From a virus (Duplodnaviria; Caudoviricetes): 64,000 nucleotides of DNA. Made by a program: the position numbers and the translations under genes. This document shows, piece by piece, positions 5,332 through 35,473 of this stretch; positions within the stretch are counted from its first letter, which is position 1; each line of letters starts with the position of its first letter. The stretch lies in IMG/VR virus record IMGVR_UViG_3300046787_000508, positions 128,001 to 192,000 of that record. The stretch is one strand, 5' to 3'. The notes below the pieces were generated by a model. That model had not been told where the DNA came from, searched no databases, and saw only the letters and a list, made by a program, of their open reading frames with translations.

Positions 5332-6015
5332 TTATTTCGACAAAAAACTATCAAGTTTCCCCATCAGTGATTTCATTTTGTCCATTTCTTGAGGTTGTTC
5401 AGCGATAGATTCTTGGAATTTATCTCTGTCACCTAAGTCTTGGAATACATATGCTCCAGGTGTAGATGGAGACGACACTAAATCAAAACAAACCAATTCA
5501 AAATCTTCTTGAACAATGTTTTGACCTTTAATGTTTTTTAAAGAACCCACACCACGTGATGATATACCCAAAGTTGCCCCGTTCATAATTAACATTGCCG
5601 CTTGGTCACCTTTAGTAGAAACAATACCCATCTTCTTCCAACCTGGGGAAGTGAATAGTTTAATTTTACCCATTAGGATTTTACCGTCCCACCAAGTTTC
5701 CAAAATAGAATGAGAAACCCTATCTAAATCAATTAGAGAAGATGAAGGGTGATTTAACTCATTTAGAGCCCCACCTTTTTGAATAAGTGTTTGGTATTTT
5801 TCGTTCTCTCTTTTTAAAAGAACCTCGGGATAGATTCTCCCGTTTTTATTTGGTGTGTCGTATTTTTGTAAAACAGCATAAAGGATAAGGTCTTGTGAAA
5901 AGTCCATATCCTTCATTTCTGCTATAATCTTCTTATTGTCGTCGGGAGAGACGTGTCCTGCGTCGTATTCGATTAGTATACCTTTTCCCGTCTCGTTTGC
6001 TCCTAGTACCTTCAT
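5332..6015 (-). CDS. gp21: Prohead protease, T4 gp21-like
   Basis: NKNGRIYP, ELNHP, GISSRGVGS, DLVSSPSTPGAY motifs. Confidence 0.95.
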   Translation of the reverse strand: MKVLGANETGKGILIEYDAGHVSPDDNKKIIAEMKDMDFSQDLILYAVLQKYDTPNKNGRIYPEVLLKRENEKYQTLIQKGGALNELNHPSSSLIDLDRVSHSILETWWDGKILMGKIKLFTSPGWKKMGIVSTKGDQAAMLIMNGATLGISSRGVGSLKNIKGQNIVQEDFELVCFDLVSSPSTPGAYVFQDLGDRDKFQESIAEQPQEMDKMKSLMGKLDSFLSK

Positions 6016-26155: not shown

Positions 26156-27812
26156 TAACTAAATTTATTTTTTCACCTTTAGAATCAATAGCATCCGATA
26201 GAACAAAATAAAACAATCCCGCAGTGTTTGTTAAATTTGTTTTAGGAGTAAAAATCAACTTATACGGTGTACCTGTTTTTATTCTTGCGGTTTTTAATTG
26301 GTCAATAGAACCAAATGTTAATCTACCATTATCATGAGTTGAGAAGTTTGTAATTGTACTTCCCGCATTGAAAACAACTTCATCTAATGTTAATTTTGAT
26401 TCGTCATAATTCATAATAACCTGTAAACCTGCCAAATCCGACTTAGTCAAATTCGTCAATAATACAACTTTCCCATTTTCAATTTTAGATACCACACTTA
26501 AAGTTGCGGTTTCTAAAGTTTTTGACGTATATGATAAAGTTCCGTATGTTGACATAGTTCTATTCATTGTAACCACATTAGTGTTTACCGAATTAACATA
26601 GTTTCCACTAGCAATTCTACTACTAATTTCACTTGGCGATGATGAGTGTGACCAATCTAAATCTCCACCCCAAGCGTAAACCATATCAACAACTTGAGTT
26701 GGAGTGGTTATGGTTACGTCATTTTTAACAATCCCATCTAACCAACCTTGGTTTAATAAACCACTATACCATCTTACTGAGGTTGATGTAGATTTAGGGA
26801 TAAATGCGTTTGTTGATACATCTATACCCATAACATGTGAAAACATATAATATGAGTCCGATTCACTAAATGCCGTTTTATTGAATGTTATTAAACCAAC
26901 TTTCTTTTCTAAAGCAGGATACGTAAAGAAATTAGTGGTACCACTTATATCAGTTTGTGAGATACCTAAAAATGCCTTATAAGCATCTGACACCGTTACA
27001 ATATTATTCATAAATGATTTCTGATTGGCAGGTGCAACAAATACACCGAATTCATCACCTACTTTTACTTCAGTAGTGAATAACGCCTCTCCTGTCCCAT
27101 CTAATTGTTTAACTGCAATAGGTTGTTGAGTCCAATCAATTTGTTTAGTTCCGTCTGTTTTTAATTTCATTAATTGAACACTATGGTCTGTTATGTTCGT
27201 ATATGAAGATGGAAATAAAACTCTAACTTTAAATTGGGAAGTGTTACCGACAACGTTAGTTAATGAAATCCCATCCGTTGATGTGGTAATTGGTGATATA
27301 TATAAACCCGCGGCATCAATTGAATATGATAAATCTAATTTATGAATATTATTATATGTGTTTTGGTCTTTTATAATATATTTTTGAGTTGCCAACAAAC
27401 CGTCAATTGAATTATCGGTTCTCTGTAATGTAATTTGACCAACATTCCAATCAGGGTTCGATAAATAATTCCAAGGAGTTGTTGTATATTGACCATACAA
27501 TGATTTAGAGTCAACATTCTGAGATGGTGTAAATGAATAATTATTCCACCCAGTATAATAAGTTTGAACTGATGACCCTTGATTATATGTGGTTGATAGG
27601 TAACTTAAAGCCTTATTATTATATTGATATCTTAACCAAAAGTAACGAGGTGTTGTAATTGGGTTTGAACCCTTGATTACGGTGTATTTTATAGTTAACG
27701 TATCACCAACCTTATATGAAGATTGTGTTACTACAGATTGATTGATTGTTAATTGTGCGAACGTTGAAAATGATATTAAAAACGTCCCAAGTAAAAATAA
27801 TATTTTTTTCAT
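26148..27812 (-). CDS. Secreted protein with cohesin-like and degenerate dockerin-like domains
   Basis: Signal peptide; VTVSDAYKAF shared with neighbour (VTISDVYLAF); C-terminal LAGLQVIMNYDESKL cohesin-like. Confidence 0.65.
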   Translation of the reverse strand: MKKILFLLGTFLISFSTFAQLTINQSVVTQSSYKVGDTLTIKYTVIKGSNPITTPRYFWLRYQYNNKALSYLSTTYNQGSSVQTYYTGWNNYSFTPSQNVDSKSLYGQYTTTPWNYLSNPDWNVGQITLQRTDNSIDGLLATQKYIIKDQNTYNNIHKLDLSYSIDAAGLYISPITTSTDGISLTNVVGNTSQFKVRVLFPSSYTNITDHSVQLMKLKTDGTKQIDWTQQPIAVKQLDGTGEALFTTEVKVGDEFGVFVAPANQKSFMNNIVTVSDAYKAFLGISQTDISGTTNFFTYPALEKKVGLITFNKTAFSESDSYYMFSHVMGIDVSTNAFIPKSTSTSVRWYSGLLNQGWLDGIVKNDVTITTPTQVVDMVYAWGGDLDWSHSSSPSEISSRIASGNYVNSVNTNVVTMNRTMSTYGTLSYTSKTLETATLSVVSKIENGKVVLLTNLTKSDLAGLQVIMNYDESKLTLDEVVFNAGSTITNFSTHDNGRLTFGSIDQLKTARIKTGTPYKLIFTPKTNLTNTAGLFYFVLSDAIDSKGEKINLVIE

Positions 27813-27813
27813 T

Positions 27814-28353
27814 TTATTTCGTGTTTGTGAATATTTTATTAATTAATGACACACATGTCTTTTTAATTGCAGAAGACAATGCTTGTTGGTTTACTTTATC
27901 ACTACCTGAATCGGTAATTAATGTTGATGTAGAAATTTCGCTACTTGATTCCTCAGCAACGGCATCCTTTATCTTTTTCCCATCTTTGTCAGTTAAAAAA
28001 CCACGCATAACAACTAATGTCTCCTCAACATCAGAATGGAATACGGAAACATTTCTTTTGGTTCTATTAACATCAAAGTAAAGTAGTTCAGCCCTAAAAA
28101 TGTAATCAGCGTTTTCAGGACTCTCAACAATAACATAATCTTTTTCTTGAAGAATTTCTTGAAAGATATTCTTTACCCCAAATCCAAGGTTACGATTATT
28201 GGTGAGTTTACCAATTTTAATTTTATTCTCAACACCTGAAACGTAGACTGATTTCGTCTCATCTATTGGTCTTAACACGTCTACGAAGAACGCAAACGTG
28301 AAAAGATACAATAAGGGCAGTAGAGATACATTGAGTCTCTTTATTTTTGTCAT
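27814..28353 (-). CDS. Envelope protein, CsgG/LptE-like alpha-beta fold
   Basis: N-terminal hydrophobic segment; LGFGVKNIFQEIL...ADYIFRAELL; start taken at 28353. Confidence 0.55.
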   Translation of the reverse strand: MTKIKRLNVSLLPLLYLFTFAFFVDVLRPIDETKSVYVSGVENKIKIGKLTNNRNLGFGVKNIFQEILQEKDYVIVESPENADYIFRAELLYFDVNRTKRNVSVFHSDVEETLVVMRGFLTDKDGKKIKDAVAEESSSEISTSTLITDSGSDKVNQQALSSAIKKTCVSLINKIFTNTK

Positions 28354-28417
28354 ACTAATAAATATCATCTATTAGTCAACTGATTATAAAAAAAAATAAA
28401 AATATTTTAATCTTTTC

Positions 28418-28448
28418 TTGTTTATTACAATACTTATTGTTACCTTTG
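28418..28448 (+). promoter_or_regulatory. Bacteroidota-type promoter for tRNA cluster 1 leader
   Basis: TTG (28418) - N20 - TACCTTTG (28441). Confidence 0.7.
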
Positions 28449-28477
28449 TACTATAAATCAAAGGAAAAAAAAATTCA

Positions 28478-28576
28478 ATGAGACAATTTACACATACAAT
28501 GTCGTTTACAATCTGTTCAAAATGGGCGGATGAGCGTTCTATGTCCTATAGTCTCGGAATTGATGAATTAAGTTAA
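28478..28576 (+). CDS. Putative attenuator leader peptide 1 (32 aa)
   Basis: MRQFTHTMSFTICSKWADERSMSYSLGIDELS; codons match cluster-1 tRNAs; 3' end complementary to the terminator. Confidence 0.75.
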   Translation: MRQFTHTMSFTICSKWADERSMSYSLGIDELS

Positions 28577-28598
28577 AAGTAAATTAACTAATAATATT

Positions 28599-28636
28599 AA
28601 AACCCTGAGACTTATAATCTCAGGGTTTTTTGTTTT
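28599..28636 (+). terminator. Attenuator terminator before tRNA cluster 1
   Basis: aaaaccctgaga-cttataa-tctcagggtttt plus T tract, abutting the first tRNA. Confidence 0.85.
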
Positions 28637-28706
28637 GGGCCTGATGTCAACGGCAGACCACCTGATTTGCAATCAGAGTGTTTGGGTTCGATTCCCACAG
28701 TGTCCA
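28637..28706 (+). tRNA. trnA: tRNA-Ala(UGC), atypical
   Basis: Loop tt-TGC-aa; G3:U70 pair; bulged acceptor stem. Confidence 0.7.
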
Positions 28707-28712
28707 CAAATT

Positions 28713-28784
28713 GGAATATAGCTCAGTTGGTTAGAGCGTCATCCTGATACGGTGAATGTCGATGGTTCGAGTCCATCTATTCCA
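28713..28784 (+). tRNA. trnI: tRNA-Ile(GAU)
   Basis: Cloverleaf; loop ct-GAT-ac. Confidence 0.9.
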
Positions 28785-28792
28785 ACAACAAT

Positions 28793-28865
28793 GGTGATGT
28801 AGCTCAGATGGTAGAGCGCTACCCTGAAGAGGTAGGCGTCGGCGGTTCGAGTCCGTCCATCACCA
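28793..28865 (+). tRNA. trnF: tRNA-Phe(GAA)
   Basis: Cloverleaf; ctacc-ctGAAga-ggtag. Confidence 0.92.
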
Positions 28866-28869
28866 CAAT

Positions 28870-28943
28870 GACCTCGTAGCTCAGTTGGTTAGAGCACCTC
28901 ACTTTTAATGAGGGAGTCAATGGTTCGAGTCCATTCGGGGTCA
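28870..28943 (+). tRNA. trnK: tRNA-Lys(UUU)
   Basis: cctca-ctTTTaa-tgagg. Confidence 0.92.
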
Positions 28944-28949
28944 CAATAT

Positions 28950-29021
28950 GCTGCGGTAGTGAAGAGGTTAACACGTATCACTTTCTATGATAAGGCCGGG
29001 GTTCGATTCCCCGTCGCAGTA
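28950..29021 (+). tRNA. tRNA with UUC anticodon (Glu), atypical U37
   Basis: tatca-ctTTCta-tgata; intact acceptor and T arms. Confidence 0.6.
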
Positions 29022-29025
29022 CAAA

Positions 29026-29098
29026 ATACAAATTAGGCTAAGGTAGCCAAATGGTCTCCAAAACCATAGGAGAAAGTTCGATTCTTTCAATTTGTGCA
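29026..29098 (+). tRNA. trnW: tRNA-Trp(CCA), weak first acceptor pair
   Basis: atggt-ctCCAaa-accat; T loop ttcgatt. Confidence 0.7.
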
Positions 29099-29152
29099 AA
29101 ATATAAATTATGAAAAAGAAATTTGATATGCATTAGGTTAAATTCCTAATAT

Positions 29153-29374
29153 ATGAAACCGTTCAAAAACAAAGTAAGTCAAACGACAACTCACAACAAA
29201 GAGTATAAAATAGTAACAAACGATAAATTCGACCCATATTGGGATGAAGGATATAATTTTTATCCGAGATATCGTAGAGGGTATAAGAACCCAAATAAAT
29301 GTATAATGAGTTTTCAAATTAGAATGTATCGAACTTGGAAACATAATAGAAAAACACAATGGAGAATAATGTAG
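29153..29374 (+). CDS. Small basic hypothetical protein
   Basis: 73 aa, ends RTWKHNRKTQWR. Confidence 0.6.
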   Translation: MKPFKNKVSQTTTHNKEYKIVTNDKFDPYWDEGYNFYPRYRRGYKNPNKCIMSFQIRMYRTWKHNRKTQWRIM

Positions 29375-29781
29375 AGGGATTTAAGTTAAAGGCCGAAGCT
29401 CAACTTATCCAAATCAGAGAGGAAAGAAAAAAGAGGGTAAAGGAGTATTGGGAAAATCTCCCCAAGATTGTTACTCCAAACGATGTCCCTGAATTACCAA
29501 GAGTAGATATTCAGGAATGGAAAGATTTCTACGTCCCAAAATTAATTGAGGCGGGAGCAATTGGTAAGGACGATTTGATTGAAGGTCAAATTTACATTGG
29601 TGAACATAGAAGAGCGAATGTTGCTAAATGGAACGGAAATGAATTCATTTACAATAGAGAGAAATTTGGAAACGTTTATGAAGATAAATGTAACCACTTT
29701 GAAGATGATGATGGGTTCGCTTTATTTGTTCCAATTAGATTTGGTACTGAGGAAGAATATAAGCAAAATTGTTTACAATAA
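29359..29781 (+). CDS. Hypothetical protein
   Basis: 140-aa ORF within the tRNA cluster. Confidence 0.7.
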   Translation: MENNVEGFKLKAEAQLIQIREERKKRVKEYWENLPKIVTPNDVPELPRVDIQEWKDFYVPKLIEAGAIGKDDLIEGQIYIGEHRRANVAKWNGNEFIYNREKFGNVYEDKCNHFEDDDGFALFVPIRFGTEEEYKQNCLQ

Positions 29782-29789
29782 ACAATAAA

Positions 29790-29863
29790 GGGTCTCTTGG
29801 TGTAACGGATAACACGGAACACTACGAATGTTTTGTTAAAGGTTCGAATCCTTTAGAGACCTC
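29790..29863 (+). tRNA. trnR: tRNA-Arg(ACG)
   Basis: gaaca-ctACGaa-tgttt. Confidence 0.88.
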
Positions 29864-29869
29864 AAATAA

Positions 29870-29941
29870 GTCAGGTTGACCGAGTTGGTAAGGTGAAGGT
29901 CTGCAAAACCTTTTACGTTGGTTCGAATCCAACACTTGACT
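29870..29941 (+). tRNA. trnC: tRNA-Cys(GCA)
   Basis: aaggt-ctGCAaa-acctt; U73. Confidence 0.9.
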
Positions 29942-29950
29942 CTAATATAT

Positions 29951-30024
29951 GGTGATTGTAGCTGAAATGGTAAAGCACCTGATTGTGGTTCAGGCGATTG
30001 TGGGTTCGATTCCCACCTTTCACA
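29951..30024 (+). tRNA. trnH: tRNA-His(GUG)
   Basis: cctga-ttGTGgt-tcagg; G-1 present. Confidence 0.85.
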
Positions 30025-30031
30025 CAAAAAT

Positions 30032-30115
30032 TGCGGGATGTCAGAAGATGGTATCTGGGGAGTCTCATAAGCTCTTGCGTAAGCCTCGTGGGTTCGAGTC
30101 CCACTCCCGCAACCA
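30032..30115 (+). tRNA. tRNA-CAU (probable elongator Met) with 12-nt variable arm
   Basis: ggagt-ctCATaa-gctct; encoded CCA end. Confidence 0.75.
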
Positions 30116-30150
30116 TTTACAATGATATTTATATTCGGTAAATTATTACT

Positions 30151-30969
30151 ATGGAGTATAAATGTCAATATTGTAATGAAATGTTTGTTTTTGAAAAAAA
30201 ACAACAAGCGGGAGCTCACGTAACTAACTGTTCTATGAATCCCAAAAAAAAATTAATGACCGAGAAAAGGTTATTAAGTAAGGACCAAGTAAAAATAGAT
30301 AGAGTATTAAATTGTGAAAGATGTAATCAGGAATATACAATTAATATAACCAACCATCTATTCTCAATTGGTGATTATAAAAAACATTGTTCAAGAAAAT
30401 GTGCAAACAGTAGAACACAAAAAGAAGAAACAAAAAATAAAATATCGGAATCGGTTAAAATGTGGTTTGAAAAACCTGAAGTTAAAATAAAATTATTAAA
30501 AGATAAATCAAAATATAGAAGAAATAGAAAATGTCCATCTTGTAATGATGATTTTTTAACATTAAAATCGTCAAAACAAAAATATTGTTCATTGAAATGT
30601 GCAGGTTCCGCCGGAGGTAAAAACTCTAAACAGGGGAAAAGGAGTTTAAATGAAATTATGTTTTTTGAATTATGTAGTGAACATTTTGAAGGTGTAATGT
30701 CAAACGAAAACGCGTTTAATGGTTGGGACGCTGATGTTATTCTACCAAATGAAAAAATTGCAGTTTTATGGAATGGAATTTGGCACTATAAAAAAATAAT
30801 GAAAAAACATTCATTAACCCAAGTTCAAAATAGGGATATGATTAAAATAAAGGAAATAAAAAAATTAGGGTTTAAACCATATATAATAAAAGATATGGGT
30901 TCACATAATCCAGAGTTTGTGAATGAACAATTTATTATTTTTAAAAAATATTTAGAAAATATTTTGTAA
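30151..30969 (+). CDS. Zn-finger plus Vsr/EDxHD-like endonuclease (putative free-standing homing endonuclease)
   Basis: Several CxxC and CSxxC motifs; DADVILPNEKIAVLWNGIWHY...NRDMIK nuclease-like C-terminus. Confidence 0.7.
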   Translation: MEYKCQYCNEMFVFEKKQQAGAHVTNCSMNPKKKLMTEKRLLSKDQVKIDRVLNCERCNQEYTINITNHLFSIGDYKKHCSRKCANSRTQKEETKNKISESVKMWFEKPEVKIKLLKDKSKYRRNRKCPSCNDDFLTLKSSKQKYCSLKCAGSAGGKNSKQGKRSLNEIMFFELCSEHFEGVMSNENAFNGWDADVILPNEKIAVLWNGIWHYKKIMKKHSLTQVQNRDMIKIKEIKKLGFKPYIIKDMGSHNPEFVNEQFIIFKKYLENIL

Positions 30970-31018
30970 ATTAAAAAATAAATATTACATTTGTACAAGA
31001 ATTAAATGTTCATTGAAA
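30963..31018 (+). promoter_or_regulatory. Internal Bacteroidota-type promoter plus boxA-like site
   Basis: TTTG (30963) - N19 - TACATTTG (30986), then TGTTCATTGAAA. Confidence 0.65.
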
Positions 31019-31024
31019 ATATAT

Positions 31025-31096
31025 CGCAGGGTAGAGCAGTGGTAGCTCGGGAGGCTCATAACCTCTAGGTCGTCAGTTCGAATCTGGCCCCTGCAA
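31025..31096 (+). tRNA. trnfM: Initiator tRNA-fMet(CAU)
   Basis: C1:A72 mismatch; ggagg-ctCATaa-cctct. Confidence 0.88.
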
Positions 31097-31145
31097 CAAA
31101 ACATAAGATTAATTACCTTATGTATGGAAGGTTCGAAACTTCCGA

Positions 31146-31259
31146 TTGATTATGGTGTAAAGGTGCACGGCAGAACGGAGTAGGAATACGAAAAGCATTG
31201 AGCTTTCGTCGGTTCCGAAAGGGGAAACAGGATTATGGTTCGAATCCATTTTAGTCAAC
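31146..31259 (+). ncRNA. tRNA-like RNA with an expanded branched domain in place of the anticodon arm
   Basis: Acceptor ttgatta/tagtcaa, D arm and T loop ttcgaat; ~65-nt insert. Confidence 0.6.
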
Positions 31260-31260
31260 T

Positions 31261-31388
31261 ATTGTAATTGACATAACGTCCTTAGCGGGAGAGCTTAGTA
31301 TATTACGGATAATCCTTCGGTAATTTACGATATGGTAACGTAGAAACAAGAGTAAGAGGATTTGAGTTCTACCTATGTTAGTTACAAT
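31261..31388 (+). ncRNA. Candidate structured RNA
   Basis: 15-bp closing stem 31261-31275/31374-31388. Confidence 0.5.
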
Positions 31389-31392
31389 TTTT

Positions 31393-31465
31393 GGGATTGA
31401 GGTCAAACGGTTAAGATGTCGCCCTGTCACGGCGCACGGAGCGGGTTCAACTCCCGTCAGTCCCG
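31393..31465 (+). tRNA. trnD: tRNA-Asp(GUC)
   Basis: cgcc-ctGTCac-ggcg. Confidence 0.9.
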
Positions 31466-31673
31466 CAAATGAGTAAGAGATACTCAATGATTTGGCATCG
31501 TTCGAAATAATGATGTAGTTGTTTCCTTCCACGATTTTATAGAGGGGGTCTCGGAATATGGTCGTAACAAAACTACCGAGTATGTTTGACGTTTTAAGCG
31601 GTAAGACGCGATGGGTTTTTCAATACGAAAAACTGTGAATATCTACCTCGAAATAATCTCATCGGGGACAATT

Positions 31674-31759
31674 GGAAGGATGGCAGAGTTGGTCGATTGT
31701 ACCTGACTTGAAATCAGGCGTACTGCAAGGTACCGTGGGTTCGAATCCTACTCCTTCCG
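31674..31759 (+). tRNA. trnS: tRNA-Ser(UGA)
   Basis: cctga-ctTGAaa-tcagg; long variable arm; G73. Confidence 0.92.
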
Positions 31760-32033
31760 CAATTCGACGACATTTAGGGTGATTTAGTATCTAGATTACT
31801 CTTTGTAACGATTACGGAAGTACACATTTATTTGTGTTAAACGTTAAGTTCGACAGGTAGAAACTAAGTGGTTCGGAATTTGACTGAAACAAGGTGACTT
31901 GGTCTTTGAAGTATTCAAACGATTTATCGTTGTAGGTACTGAATAACAAGAAGATAAACTAAGAACATCATCGTATGAAGTTTACCTAGAGAAATTTATA
32001 AAACGATGACTGCTCGGAAAGACGGGCTCATTT

Positions 32034-32145
32034 AATTAGGTGGCGGAATTGGTAAACGTAGAGATGTTGAAGTTTAGGTATCACTATGATTAAGTTCAGA
32101 AACTTGACCTAATGCTCTAAACAGGTTCGAATCCTGTCCTGATTA
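32034..32145 (+). ncRNA. tRNA-like RNA with expanded branched anticodon domain
   Basis: Acceptor aattagg/cctgatt; Leu-like D arm; T arm acagg-ttcgaat-cctgt. Confidence 0.6.
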
Positions 32146-32335
32146 CAGGTCGTCTTTTTATATTGCTCCCGTTTGTGAGTTAACTTTATAGACGTAAAAC
32201 TTAAAGTAATGAAAATCATTCCCTTCTGGAGTTGACGGTAAAACTATCCAGTCCTGTTCCTTACCGAAGGAGTTTCCGGACGTTAATATGAAACTCAAAC
32301 GACAGTGAAAAGTAGGGACTTATAAGTTTTACCTG
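32146..32335 (+). ncRNA. Candidate pseudoknotted RNA
   Basis: Crossing long-range helices 32171-81/32292-300 and 32194-203/32323-32. Confidence 0.5.
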
Positions 32336-32350
32336 AACTTGTCCCGAATT

Positions 32351-32422
32351 GGCCCGTTCGACTATCGGTTAGGTCGTCAGGTTTTCATCCTGGAAAGAGG
32401 GGTTCGACTCCCCTACGGGCTA
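32351..32422 (+). tRNA. trnE: tRNA-Glu(UUC)
   Basis: tcagg-ttTTCat-cctgg. Confidence 0.92.
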
Positions 32423-32436
32423 CTAAATTTAATGAA

Positions 32437-32628
32437 ATGAAAAAGTTAATTTTATTATTGGTTGTGATGTTTAGTATGAGTGGTTGTTATACCACATATA
32501 GAACGCCACAAAGACACAATGGACTTAGACCTTTATGGTATAATCCAAGAACTCATCAAGGACCGTTTTATAATCATCCAAGACCAAGAAACATGAGACC
32601 ACATTTCAATCCAAGAAATCGTTGGTAA
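32437..32628 (+). CDS. Small Arg/Pro-rich lipoprotein
   Basis: MKKLILLLVVMFSMSGC lipobox. Confidence 0.7.
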   Translation: MKKLILLLVVMFSMSGCYTTYRTPQRHNGLRPLWYNPRTHQGPFYNHPRPRNMRPHFNPRNRW

Positions 32629-32669
32629 CATTTGACTTTTTAATATTTTATTAGTATATTTATATTATT

Positions 32670-32999
32670 ATGAAACAACATTAGACACATAGACTTATAA
32701 CCGTAACGAGAAAAGATATTTCTCCGGGTTATCAAATTGCACAATCGGGGCATGCAATTGCACAATTCTTTTTAGACCATCCCGATTTATCTAAAAAATG
32801 GAACAACAACTATCTTATTTCGTTGTCCATAGATTCCGAACAAAAATTACATAAACTTTTTACCGACTTAATTGAGTGTGGAATATCCGTATCCGTGTTT
32901 AACGAACCAGATATTGATAATCAACTAACGTCACTGTGCTTCCTCGAAACGGGAGATACAAAAAAATACACACATAAACTTAAATTATCTTTAAATTAA
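32670..32999 (+). CDS. Peptidyl-tRNA hydrolase 2 (Pth2)-like protein with in-frame TAG at codon 5
   Basis: ATG AAA CAA CAT TAG ACA CAT AGA CTT ATA...; translation MKQH*THRLITVTRKDISPGYQIAQSGHAIAQF...FNEPDIDNQLTSLCF; missed by the ORF track. Confidence 0.75.
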
Positions 33000-33108
33000 G
33001 AAACCATGAAATAGATACGACCACCGAACTAAACTTAATAAAGTAAAAAATGCTCGATAAAGGCATCAACTTTATCATTAAACAATAACTTTATTAAATT
33101 TAAACAAA

Positions 33109-33447
33109 ATGAAAAAATACACAAATAACCCAACACAAATGATTAAATGTACATTCTCTAACTCAGTTCATAAAATATTAGAACCTAATATCGATATTAA
33201 AAATCGTGAAAGATGGAGAAAAGAAAATCGTGACAAATACAATTTCACTGATGAACAAAAAATAGAAATGTTCGATAAGATAATGAAAATACATAAAGAA
33301 ACATCTAATGAATTAACATCTTATCAATTTGATAGGAGAGACAAAAAAAGGTTACACGCTGACCGTGTCGCTCGAGGTTATAAATTTAAAACAAAAACCA
33401 AAAAGGAAGAATATGAAAAAAATATTCAGAAAGATTTGGTATTATAA
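33109..33447 (+). CDS. Hypothetical basic protein
   Basis: 112-aa ORF. Confidence 0.6.
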   Translation: MKKYTNNPTQMIKCTFSNSVHKILEPNIDIKNRERWRKENRDKYNFTDEQKIEMFDKIMKIHKETSNELTSYQFDRRDKKRLHADRVARGYKFKTKTKKEEYEKNIQKDLVL

Positions 33448-33466
33448 AAAATAAACAATACATTTG
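33435..33466 (+). promoter_or_regulatory. Bacteroidota-type promoter upstream of the suppressor tRNA
   Basis: TTTG (33435) - N20 - TACATTTG (33459). Confidence 0.7.
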
Positions 33467-33575
33467 TATTATAATTTACAACCAAAGAGACATTGACTTA
33501 GTAACCCAGTGGAGGCACACATAAACTGTATTAGTGAAAAGTTGAGGTGATAGACCACCATGTTGTAAATTATTT

Positions 33576-33647
33576 GTCCTGTTAGTGTAGTGGTAGCACG
33601 AAGGTCTCTAAAACCTTTAAGGGTCGGTTCGAGTCCGACACGGGGCA
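33576..33647 (+). tRNA. Amber suppressor tRNA(CUA)
   Basis: Acceptor gtcctgt/acggggc; aaggt-ctCTAaa-acctt; T arm gtcgg-ttcgagt-ccgac. Confidence 0.88.
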
Positions 33648-33671
33648 CAAAAATAAAAAAAATAAAAAATA

Positions 33672-33703
33672 TTTGTTTACTATTGATATTTTTTGTAAAT
33701 TTG
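33672..33703 (+). promoter_or_regulatory. Bacteroidota-type promoter for tRNA cluster 2 leader
   Basis: TTTG (33672) - N20 - TAAATTTG (33696). Confidence 0.7.
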
Positions 33704-33720
33704 CATATACTTATTAAACG

Positions 33721-33828
33721 ATGAAGAATATAAATAACATATTGACGAGTACGAGACCCCTTAACAATGGTAATGGGTATGGTGTGCAACCGTTAAGTTA
33801 CTTATGTTCGGATATTATTGAGATGTAA
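33721..33828 (+). CDS. Putative attenuator leader peptide 2 (35 aa)
   Basis: MKNINNILTSTRPLNNGNGYGVQPLSYLCSDIIEM; codons 3-28 all read by cluster-2 tRNAs. Confidence 0.78.
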   Translation: MKNINNILTSTRPLNNGNGYGVQPLSYLCSDIIEM

Positions 33829-33850
33829 ATAAATTTTACAATTATAAATC

Positions 33851-33890
33851 AACCCGAACAAATTAAAAAAATGTTCGGGTTTTTTGTTTT
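33851..33890 (+). terminator. Attenuator terminator before tRNA cluster 2
   Basis: aacccgaaca-loop-tgttcgggtt plus T tract. Confidence 0.85.
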
Positions 33891-33933
33891 AATTAAATTT
33901 TATTATTACATTTGTAACGTAGTTCATTGACAT
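33883..33933 (+). promoter_or_regulatory. Promoter-like site overlapping the terminator plus boxA-like site
   Basis: TTTG (33883) - N20 - TACATTTG (33907); AGTTCATTGACA at 33921. Confidence 0.55.
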
Positions 33934-33947
33934 TCTGAGAAAGTAAC

Positions 33948-34032
33948 GCCCGGGTGGTGTAATGGTAGCCACGAGGGACTTAAAATCCCTTGGACAGAAA
34001 CGTTCGTGCCGGTTCGAGTCCGGCCCCGGGTA
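33948..34032 (+). tRNA. trnL: tRNA-Leu(UAA)
   Basis: aggga-ctTAAaa-tccct; long variable arm. Confidence 0.92.
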
Positions 34033-34080
34033 CGAAGCTTAGTTCACACTATACTCGCGAAGAGGAGGAAGTGTATTTTT

Positions 34081-34154
34081 GGTTCCATAGCTCAATTGGA
34101 TAGAGCAACACACTTCTAATGTGTAGGTTTCAGGTTCGACTCCTGATGGAATCA
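34081..34154 (+). tRNA. trnR: tRNA-Arg(UCU)
   Basis: acaca-ctTCTaa-tgtgt. Confidence 0.92.
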
Positions 34155-34212
34155 CACCGGTGGTAGTTTTGAGGTTGACGAATTCTACATAAAAAAAATA
34201 ATTCATCCACTA

Positions 34213-34285
34213 CTAGGTGTGGGAAAGTTGGTAATCCGCGTGGTTTGGGACCACGAGACCGTAGGTTCGAGCCCTACCACTTAGA
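34213..34285 (+). tRNA. trnP: tRNA-Pro(UGG)
   Basis: cgtgg-ttTGGga-ccacg. Confidence 0.92.
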
Positions 34286-34363
34286 CGAGATGGTGATAAC
34301 CAATCAGCAGCCAAAATGTATACAGAAATGCTGGAGGTGACAAACGGGGAGAGACCCGTACAT

Positions 34364-34443
34364 ACCCGAGTGGTGGAATGGTATACACAGCGGTCTTAGA
34401 AACCGTGTCGAAAGGCGTGTCGGTTCGAGTCCGACCTTGGGTA
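34364..34443 (+). tRNA. trnL: tRNA-Leu(UAG)
   Basis: gcggt-ctTAGaa-accgt; variable arm. Confidence 0.92.
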
Positions 34444-34451
34444 CGAAAATT

Positions 34452-34523
34452 GGCCTTGTAGCTCAGTGGTAGAGCAGTTGACTGTTAATCAACTGGTCGT
34501 TGGTTCGAATCCAACCGGGGCCT
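34452..34523 (+). tRNA. trnN: tRNA-Asn(GUU)
   Basis: gttga-ctGTTaa-tcaac. Confidence 0.92.
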
Positions 34524-34594
34524 CAAAAAGTTTAACCATATAAGGTTGAATAAGATGACAGACGAAAGTTATCTCTTGAGGGTAAAATGAAAAG

Positions 34595-34655
34595 ATTGGT
34601 AGAGTGGTACTACGGGGTGACGGCCCAAACGCAGGTTCGATTCCTGTATCGAAGT
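34595..34655 (+). pseudogene. Degenerate tRNA-like remnant
   Basis: D-like tggtagagtggta and T arm gcagg-ttcgatt-cctgt, but no 7-nt anticodon loop. Confidence 0.4.
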
Positions 34656-34717
34656 AATTTGAGAGTAAAGGTAAAAGGTATTAATAGCGGTCTAAAAACT
34701 GGGTTAAACTTTGATAT

Positions 34718-34799
34718 GGGAGCATCGCATAGCGGCAATTGCAGAAGACTGTAAATCTTCCCTCTTTCGAGTTCGTAGGTTCGAGTCCTACTGCTCCCA
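34718..34799 (+). tRNA. trnY: tRNA-Tyr(GUA)
   Basis: gaaga-ctGTAaa-tcttc; variable arm. Confidence 0.92.
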
Positions 34800-34813
34800 C
34801 AAAAAAACAAATT

Positions 34814-35467
34814 ATGGCAACATTAGAAACACAGTACAAGGATTTTTTGGTTAAAAACCCAAGTTCAACGTTTACATTTGAAGAATGGAAAAACGACCAC
34901 GGGGTTAAGATTGCAAATGCAGTTGAACGTTCTTCCTCACTTAAGAAAATTATTGATGAGATTAGAACACCCGAATACAAGGAAAGGAGATTAAAAGAAA
35001 AAAAAGAAAGTAAAGAAAGATTAACCGCCGAGTATCAGTTTGGATATTATGTTGGTGAAGAAATTGTGACAAGGCATTTACCAACGATTACAACAGATAT
35101 GATAAAGTCTCGTAATCAAATTAAAGTTTCGGATGAAGACACTGAAGAAAACAAACGTATACATGACCTATGGTGGGAGAGTGGAAAATATGGTTCCAAT
35201 CCTGACGATGTGGTTAATAAAGAAACTTGGAAATTATATCGACAACATATGGTTATGTTGGAAAAGAAGTATCTCCCAAATCCTTTAAAATGTAATATTG
35301 ATTTATTAAATATTCGTGACGAGAAAGATTTTAAAGATGGGTTAATCCATTCGTTGTGGAATTGTGATATGTGTACTTACAGTTTAAAACCTGAAGACAT
35401 TAAGATATACGATGATGAAGATATGTGGTTTACCATCATTGAATTTATCCTAAGAGACGAAGAATAA
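34814..35467 (+). CDS. Hypothetical protein
   Basis: Start moved to MATLETQ (34814) because the ORF-track start lies inside tRNA-Tyr. Confidence 0.75.
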   Translation: MATLETQYKDFLVKNPSSTFTFEEWKNDHGVKIANAVERSSSLKKIIDEIRTPEYKERRLKEKKESKERLTAEYQFGYYVGEEIVTRHLPTITTDMIKSRNQIKVSDEDTEENKRIHDLWWESGKYGSNPDDVVNKETWKLYRQHMVMLEKKYLPNPLKCNIDLLNIRDEKDFKDGLIHSLWNCDMCTYSLKPEDIKIYDDEDMWFTIIEFILRDEE

Positions 35468-35473
35468 TAGTTT

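Follow-up and report, generated by a model that had tools for sequence, protein, structure and literature searches.

How might a large bacteriophage that carries a near-minimal complete set of tRNAs decide when to transcribe them? We addressed this question at a locus in which a short open reading frame (ORF) and an intrinsic terminator precede an array of 12 tRNA genes, and asked whether this arrangement could act as a leader-peptide attenuator whose codons report on the tRNAs encoded behind it. The locus lies in the 64,000-nucleotide stretch analyzed here (hereafter, the window), which corresponds to bases 128001-192000 of the 202,894-base IMG/VR virus record IMGVR_UViG_3300046787_000508. 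This record is estimated to be about 60% complete and probably belongs to a large phage of well over 200 kb. Its promoters have the Bacteroidota form (TTTG, 19-21 nt, TAnnTTTG), a motif that occurs 10 times in the window against 2.4 expected, and related contigs come from lake and other freshwater metagenomes. An earlier note, made from the sequence alone, described a promoter, a 35-codon ORF, a terminator, a copy of a terminator arm within the ORF and 12 downstream tRNAs, and all of these features were confirmed (Table 1).

Table 1. Features of the two leader units, the tRNA clusters and neighboring elements (positions are those of the window).
Feature	Position	Strand	Description
Promoter P1	33672..33703	+	TTTG (33672-33675), 20 nt, TAAATTTG (33696-33703); Bacteroidota -33/-7 type
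Leader 2 ORF	33721..33828	+	35 codons plus TAA; codons 3-24 hold at least one codon for each of the 12 downstream tRNA specificities
Segment 1	33726..33738	+	Codons 2-6; 5' strand of helix 1:2
Segment 2	33797..33811	+	Codons 26-31; 33797-33809 (codons 26-30) pairs with segment 1; UGUUCGG at 33805-33811 (inside codons 29-31) pairs with the terminator 5' arm to form the antiterminator
Segment 3	33853..33860	+	Terminator 5' arm CCCGAACA; CCGAACA at 33854-33860
Segment 4	33872..33890	+	Terminator 3' arm UGUUCGGG (33872-33879) plus T-run to 33890
Promoter-like site P2	33883..33914	+	TTTG (33883-33886) inside the T-run, 20 nt, TACATTTG (33907-33914)
Conserved stretch	33922..33933	+	GTTC(A/T)TTGACAT between P2 and tRNA-Leu; role unknown
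tRNA cluster 2	33948..36232	+	Leu(UAA), Arg(UCU), Pro, Leu(UAG), Asn, Tyr, CAU (35474, probably Ile2), Val, Thr, Gly, Gln, Ser(GCU); a protein ORF lies between Tyr and CAU
Twin unit before cluster 1	28478..28636	+	32-codon leader 1 (28478-28576); antiterminator copy AGUCUCGG (28550-28557); terminator 28603-28625 (28603-28610 / 18-25); T-run abutting tRNA-Ala at 28637; also delimited as 28478-28629 and as 28417-28636
Invariant stretch in leader 2	33763-33789		TATGGTGTGCAACC
Elongator-type tRNA-Met(CAU)	30032-30115		84 nt, with a long extra arm, unusual for tRNA-Met
fMet tRNA	31025-31097		C1/A72 mismatch of an initiator; full promoter motif at 30963
Ser(UGA)-like gene	32034-32146		113 nt; read by ARAGORN only with an insert
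Suppressor tRNA unit	33435-33648		Full promoter motif (33435-33466); conserved structured stretch of about 100 nt closed by a long stem (about 33471-33573); CUA suppressor tRNA (33576-33648)
tRNA-like gene	39315-39440		126-nt Rfam tRNA match with an insertion
tmRNA	43021-43482		Promoter motif TTTG-N20-TACATTTG at 43021; tmRNA at 43073-43482 (Rfam, 81 bits)

We first sought to determine whether the unit is conserved. A degenerate search for the peptide core in IMG/VR yielded 10 distinct versions of the whole unit, and a stricter DNA pattern applied to metagenome contigs raised this number to 38, all from related uncultured phage contigs. In all of them the order is promoter box, ORF, terminator, second promoter-like box, conserved GTTCTTTGACAT and tRNA-Leu(UAA), which always follows directly. 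The same degenerate pattern gave only chance matches in one genome per prokaryotic species, as all 33 GTDB hits lie in unrelated genes, as do the hits in four contigs (L018, L022, L064 and L090), and no homologues were found in GenBank phages by tblastn. It should be noted that the relatives are close (76-89% identity in a neighboring protein), and the number of independent evolutionary events is therefore small. The stretch between P2 and tRNA-Leu is more conserved across the 38 versions than the promoter box itself and is not repeated elsewhere in the window, nor are the motifs GTTCWTTGACAT and TATACTTATTAA.

Several lines of evidence suggest that the ORF is translated, although this is inferred from sequence comparison rather than from ribosome or RNA data. 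The ATG is invariant and the frame is open in 38 of 38 versions, at 34-36 codons. At least four indels were found within the ORF and every one is a multiple of 3, while indels after the stop codon are not. Synonymous changes are frequent (CCC/CCA/CCT, AAT/AAC, ACG/ACA/ACT, GGG/GGA) and third codon positions vary most. The peptides of the two leaders match no Pfam or PHROG family. Interestingly, one version of leader 2, found in the related contigs L009 and L019, ends in TAG rather than TAA in a phage group that carries a CUA suppressor tRNA; if TAG were read through, the ORF would extend by three codons to a TAA.

The RNA has the classical 1:2 / 2:3 / 3:4 arrangement of an attenuator. We identified a 1:2 hairpin that the earlier note had not described, in which three pairs show compensatory double changes: A-U to U-A in 6 of 38 versions, U-A to C-G in 3 with both single-step intermediates present, and A-U to G-C in 4. 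RNAalifold independently recovers this helix and the terminator on 20 versions. Helix 3:4 has an 8-10 bp G+C-rich stem (-12.0 kcal/mol) that is paired in 38 of 38 versions and shows an A-U/U-A swap. The 2:3 duplex (-8.7 kcal/mol) keeps six invariant pairs, GUUCGG pairing with the terminator 5' arm in every version, while the seventh pair is U-A in 29 versions, A-U in 5, U-G in 2 and mismatched in 2. In the A-U group, segments 1, 2, 3 and 4 have all changed together. The Ser codon inside GUUCGG is TCG in all 10 versions found without requiring it, even though TCG is only 9% of Ser codons in this genome. Helix 1:2 overlaps 2:3 by only 5 nt, so that exclusion between them is partial.

We then folded the transcript of 13 versions, cut just before segment 4 and with 31 nt masked around the ribosomal A site. 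In these minimum-energy folds, 2:3 forms fully with the A site at codons 2-25 in most versions, is lost at middle codons in a few, where 1:2 re-forms behind a single ribosome, and never forms from codon 27 to the stop, placing the switch point at codon 25/26. In some versions 2:3 also forms without any ribosome, so default termination is not guaranteed. Equilibrium folds of the full transcript give the terminator with every mask, as expected for a kinetic switch, and thus say nothing about such a switch.

Is the codon content of the leader matched to the tRNAs behind it? Codons 3-28 all fall within the 33 codons served by the 12 downstream tRNAs, and all 12 specificities occur, in codons 3-23. 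This assumes that U34 tRNAs read whole four-codon boxes and that the third CAU tRNA, in cluster 2, is Ile2, an assignment inferred from the initiator-type mismatch of one of the other two and the elongator-like appearance of the second. The earlier note estimated the chance of such a 26-codon run at 1e-7, which assumes independent codons and is not valid. The 33 codons make up 54.6% of codons in the genome's long ORFs, and polar, Gly-rich stretches of real proteins give runs of at least 26 such codons 9 times across the six frames. Such a run occurs in 0.15% of random 35-codon segments of real ORFs (p about 1.5e-3). What is unusual is coverage: full 12/12 coverage by a 34-codon segment has p = 0.0036, and a run of at least 26 that also holds all 12 classes was never seen in 500,000 samples. 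The match is therefore more than chance, though for a different reason than the one originally given.

Across the 38 versions, own-set codons are 98.9% of alignment columns 3-26 and 40% of columns 27-36, a break that coincides with the switch point predicted by folding. The uninterrupted run itself is not conserved, as TCN, ATT, AAA or TGY codons intrude in relatives, but 12/12 coverage is kept in 37 of 38 versions. For example, versions that lost the CTT at column 15 carry a CTT at column 10, and Ser-Thr is sometimes swapped to Thr-Ser with both classes kept. An apparent loss of tRNA-Asn in two related contigs (L013 and L110) was an ARAGORN miss, as Rfam finds a tRNA in that slot. Given the peptide, the zone also holds 7 rare G-ending codons (p = 9e-4), whereas the rare-codon bias in leader 1 is not significant. 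However, most classes are represented by only one or two codons, and the central peptide motif (GNGYGVQP) and its nucleotides are more conserved than a checklist of codons alone requires: the fourteen nucleotides of TATGGTGTGCAACC are invariant, including four synonymous sites, in all 10 versions found with the degenerate pattern.

Interestingly, a second, unrelated unit of the same design, beginning with a promoter-like box, lies before tRNA cluster 1. With relaxed ARAGORN settings and Rfam, the region between 28637 and 33648 was found to hold tRNAs for Ala, Ile(GAU), Phe, Lys, Trp, Glu (two copies), Arg(ACG), Cys, His, Met, fMet, Asp and Ser(UGA) (two copies) and a CUA suppressor, and the 24 decoding classes are therefore split 12/12 between the two clusters. 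The 31 sense codons of leader 1 cover all 12 cluster 1 classes, including Trp, Cys, His, Met and Arg-CGN (p = 1.6e-4). Both leaders covering their own sets occurred once in 400,000 random pairs and, conditional on the total diversity of 20 classes in leader 1, none of 1,073 random segments covered all of its set. Taking only the predicted sensing zones (leader 1 codons 2-21, leader 2 codons 2-25), only 4 of 2,704,156 possible 12/12 partitions of the classes are fully covered, and the genomic partition is one of them. All 23 versions of leader 1 keep 12/12 coverage, although the search pattern required the KWAD core. Its antiterminator copy, which resembles the terminator 3' arm, covaries with the two terminator types found in relatives: GUCUCGA occurs with the CCUCGGGAC type in 10 of 11, and GUCUCAG or GUCUCGG with the CCCUGAGAC type in 10 of 12. 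As the T-run leaves no room for a promoter before tRNA-Ala, this cluster can only be reached by read-through.

The correspondence between leaders and clusters is nevertheless imperfect. The classes free to move between the partitions compatible with both leaders are Lys, Gln, Arg-AGR and Thr, and the one relocation seen among relatives is tRNA-Thr, which lies in cluster 1 in the related contigs L003 and L019. Yet leader 2 of L019 keeps a Thr codon, leader 1 carries Thr codons everywhere, and Ser TCN codons, whose tRNA is in cluster 1, intrude in several versions of leader 2. In L019 and L013, a GOLLD RNA (Rfam RF02032, over 300 bits; L019 8171-8578, L013 4637-5044) lies a few kb downstream of the tRNA clusters, but no GOLLD match was found in window 36000-64000.

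Based on these findings, we suggest, with reasonable but not full confidence, that this is a ribosome-mediated transcription attenuator in front of cluster 2. Transcripts from P1, and any reading in from upstream, would carry the leader ORF. A ribosome that runs through to codons 27-36 would cover segment 2, allowing segments 3 and 4 to fold into the terminator and stop transcription before tRNA-Leu. A ribosome held anywhere in codons 2-25 would leave segment 2 free to pair with the terminator 5' arm as soon as that arm emerges, the terminator could not form, and RNA polymerase would read into the tRNA genes. Slow decoding by any one of the 12 tRNAs should therefore raise synthesis of the whole set, giving a feedback loop, although the kinetic competition between the two folds and tRNA supply as the signal are inferred. 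It should be noted that the terminator is probably not the only route to cluster 2, a caveat that the earlier note had raised. A promoter-like box stands at P2 in all versions and matches the exact consensus in 22 of 38, no worse than P1, and the same full motif precedes the fMet tRNA, the suppressor tRNA and the tmRNA, which relatives also carry. Cluster 2 therefore probably has a basal promoter, to which the attenuator would add transcripts from P1 and from upstream, and "modulating" describes its role better than the "controlling" of the earlier note.

Other explanations appear unlikely, but were considered. P1, the ORF and the terminator could form an independent transcription unit for a 35-residue peptide with a function of its own, with the tRNAs transcribed from P2 and the codon coverage and arm complementarity incidental. 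The conserved P2, the strong terminator and the conserved peptide core, RP(L/V)N-GNGYGVQP, are in line with this view. However, it does not explain 12/12 coverage in two unrelated leaders with complementary sets, the composition break exactly at the predicted switch point, the conserved copy of the terminator arm inside both ORFs, which covaries in the twin unit, or the twin unit whose terminator abuts a tRNA with no promoter between them, and no protein family matches the peptides. An untranslated structured small RNA ending at its own terminator, with a fortuitous ORF, is less likely still: the region folds better than shuffles (z = -3.7), helix 1:2 covaries and the invariant nucleotides include synonymous sites, but the signature of coding described above argues against it and no Rfam family matches. 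A conserved structured stretch occurs nearby, before the suppressor tRNA, and is also present in L003 (about 5730-5826), where an ORF follows it instead of the tRNA.

It is also possible, though we consider it improbable, that the unit is a real attenuator that only reports whether ribosomes follow RNA polymerase at all, as under host shut-off, ribosome shortage or a given infection stage, and so separates upstream transcription from cluster 2 without useful specificity for individual tRNAs. In several versions 2:3 forms whenever no ribosome covers segment 2, only one or two codons stand for most classes, and transcription can enter from the suppressor tRNA unit since no terminator lies between 33648 and 33721. 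Yet a general sensor needs no particular codon content, whereas the two leaders partition the 24 decoding classes as their tRNA clusters do and leader 2 prefers rare G-ending codons.

The closest known systems are the multivalent leader-peptide attenuators of enterobacterial amino-acid operons (thrL for Thr and Ile, ilvL for Ile, Leu and Val, and also trpL, hisL, leuL and pheL), which share with this element a short leader ORF (whose translation is inferred here), alternative 1:2, 2:3 and 3:4 pairings, an intrinsic terminator and control codons placed so that a stalled ribosome frees the antiterminator. Here, however, the genes behind the terminator are tRNA genes rather than biosynthetic enzymes, a promoter-like site follows the terminator, and the leader holds one or two codons for each of 12 decoding classes rather than a run for one to three amino acids. 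There is no sequence relation, as a covariance-model search of 27000-38000 (cmscan, E up to 1) found only tRNAs and sub-threshold chance matches, with no match to Rfam leader families (His_leader, Trp_leader, Thr_leader, Leu_leader and others) or the T-box. The pheM leader of the E. coli pheST operon probably offers a parallel in regulating a component of the translation apparatus, an aminoacyl-tRNA synthetase, according to decoding of its own codons, but it senses a single amino acid and regulates a protein enzyme, whereas here the products are the tRNAs themselves. T-box riboswitches also report the state of a specific tRNA through a terminator/antiterminator switch and regulate translation-related genes, but they bind uncharged tRNA directly, need no ribosome and sense one tRNA. 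In antibiotic-responsive leaders (ermCL, ermBL, the msrD leader and similar), ribosome stalling on a short ORF remodels downstream RNA structure, but stalling depends on a drug and the nascent peptide and they regulate resistance genes, while here the codon content points to tRNA supply as the signal. We found no published description of leader-peptide attenuation of tRNA operons in full-text searches, which did not reach most subscription journals and could have missed older work, for example on phage T5 tRNA regions.

We speculate, tentatively, that the near-minimal complete tRNA set of this phage is split without overlap into two operons, each gated by a checklist leader that carries at least one, often rare, codon for every tRNA behind it. 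Loss of any single tRNA species, for example through a host anticodon nuclease, phage-induced host tRNA decay or codon demand late in infection, would then stall ribosomes on the matching leader and switch on the replacement set, making the pair a two-channel sensor and counter-defence circuit for tRNA integrity.

Leader-peptide attenuation is a textbook mechanism, but it is known for amino-acid biosynthesis and a few synthetase or resistance genes, and typically uses runs of codons for one to three amino acids. Here the same hardware appears to regulate tRNA genes themselves, through a leader that samples every tRNA in the operon, extending ribosome-mediated attenuation to phages of Bacteroidota. 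If this is right, it gives phage tRNA arrays a regulatory logic in which they are made on demand, offers a compact, portable sensor of decoding capacity, and links these arrays to current questions about tRNA-targeting host defences and phage-driven loss of host tRNAs.
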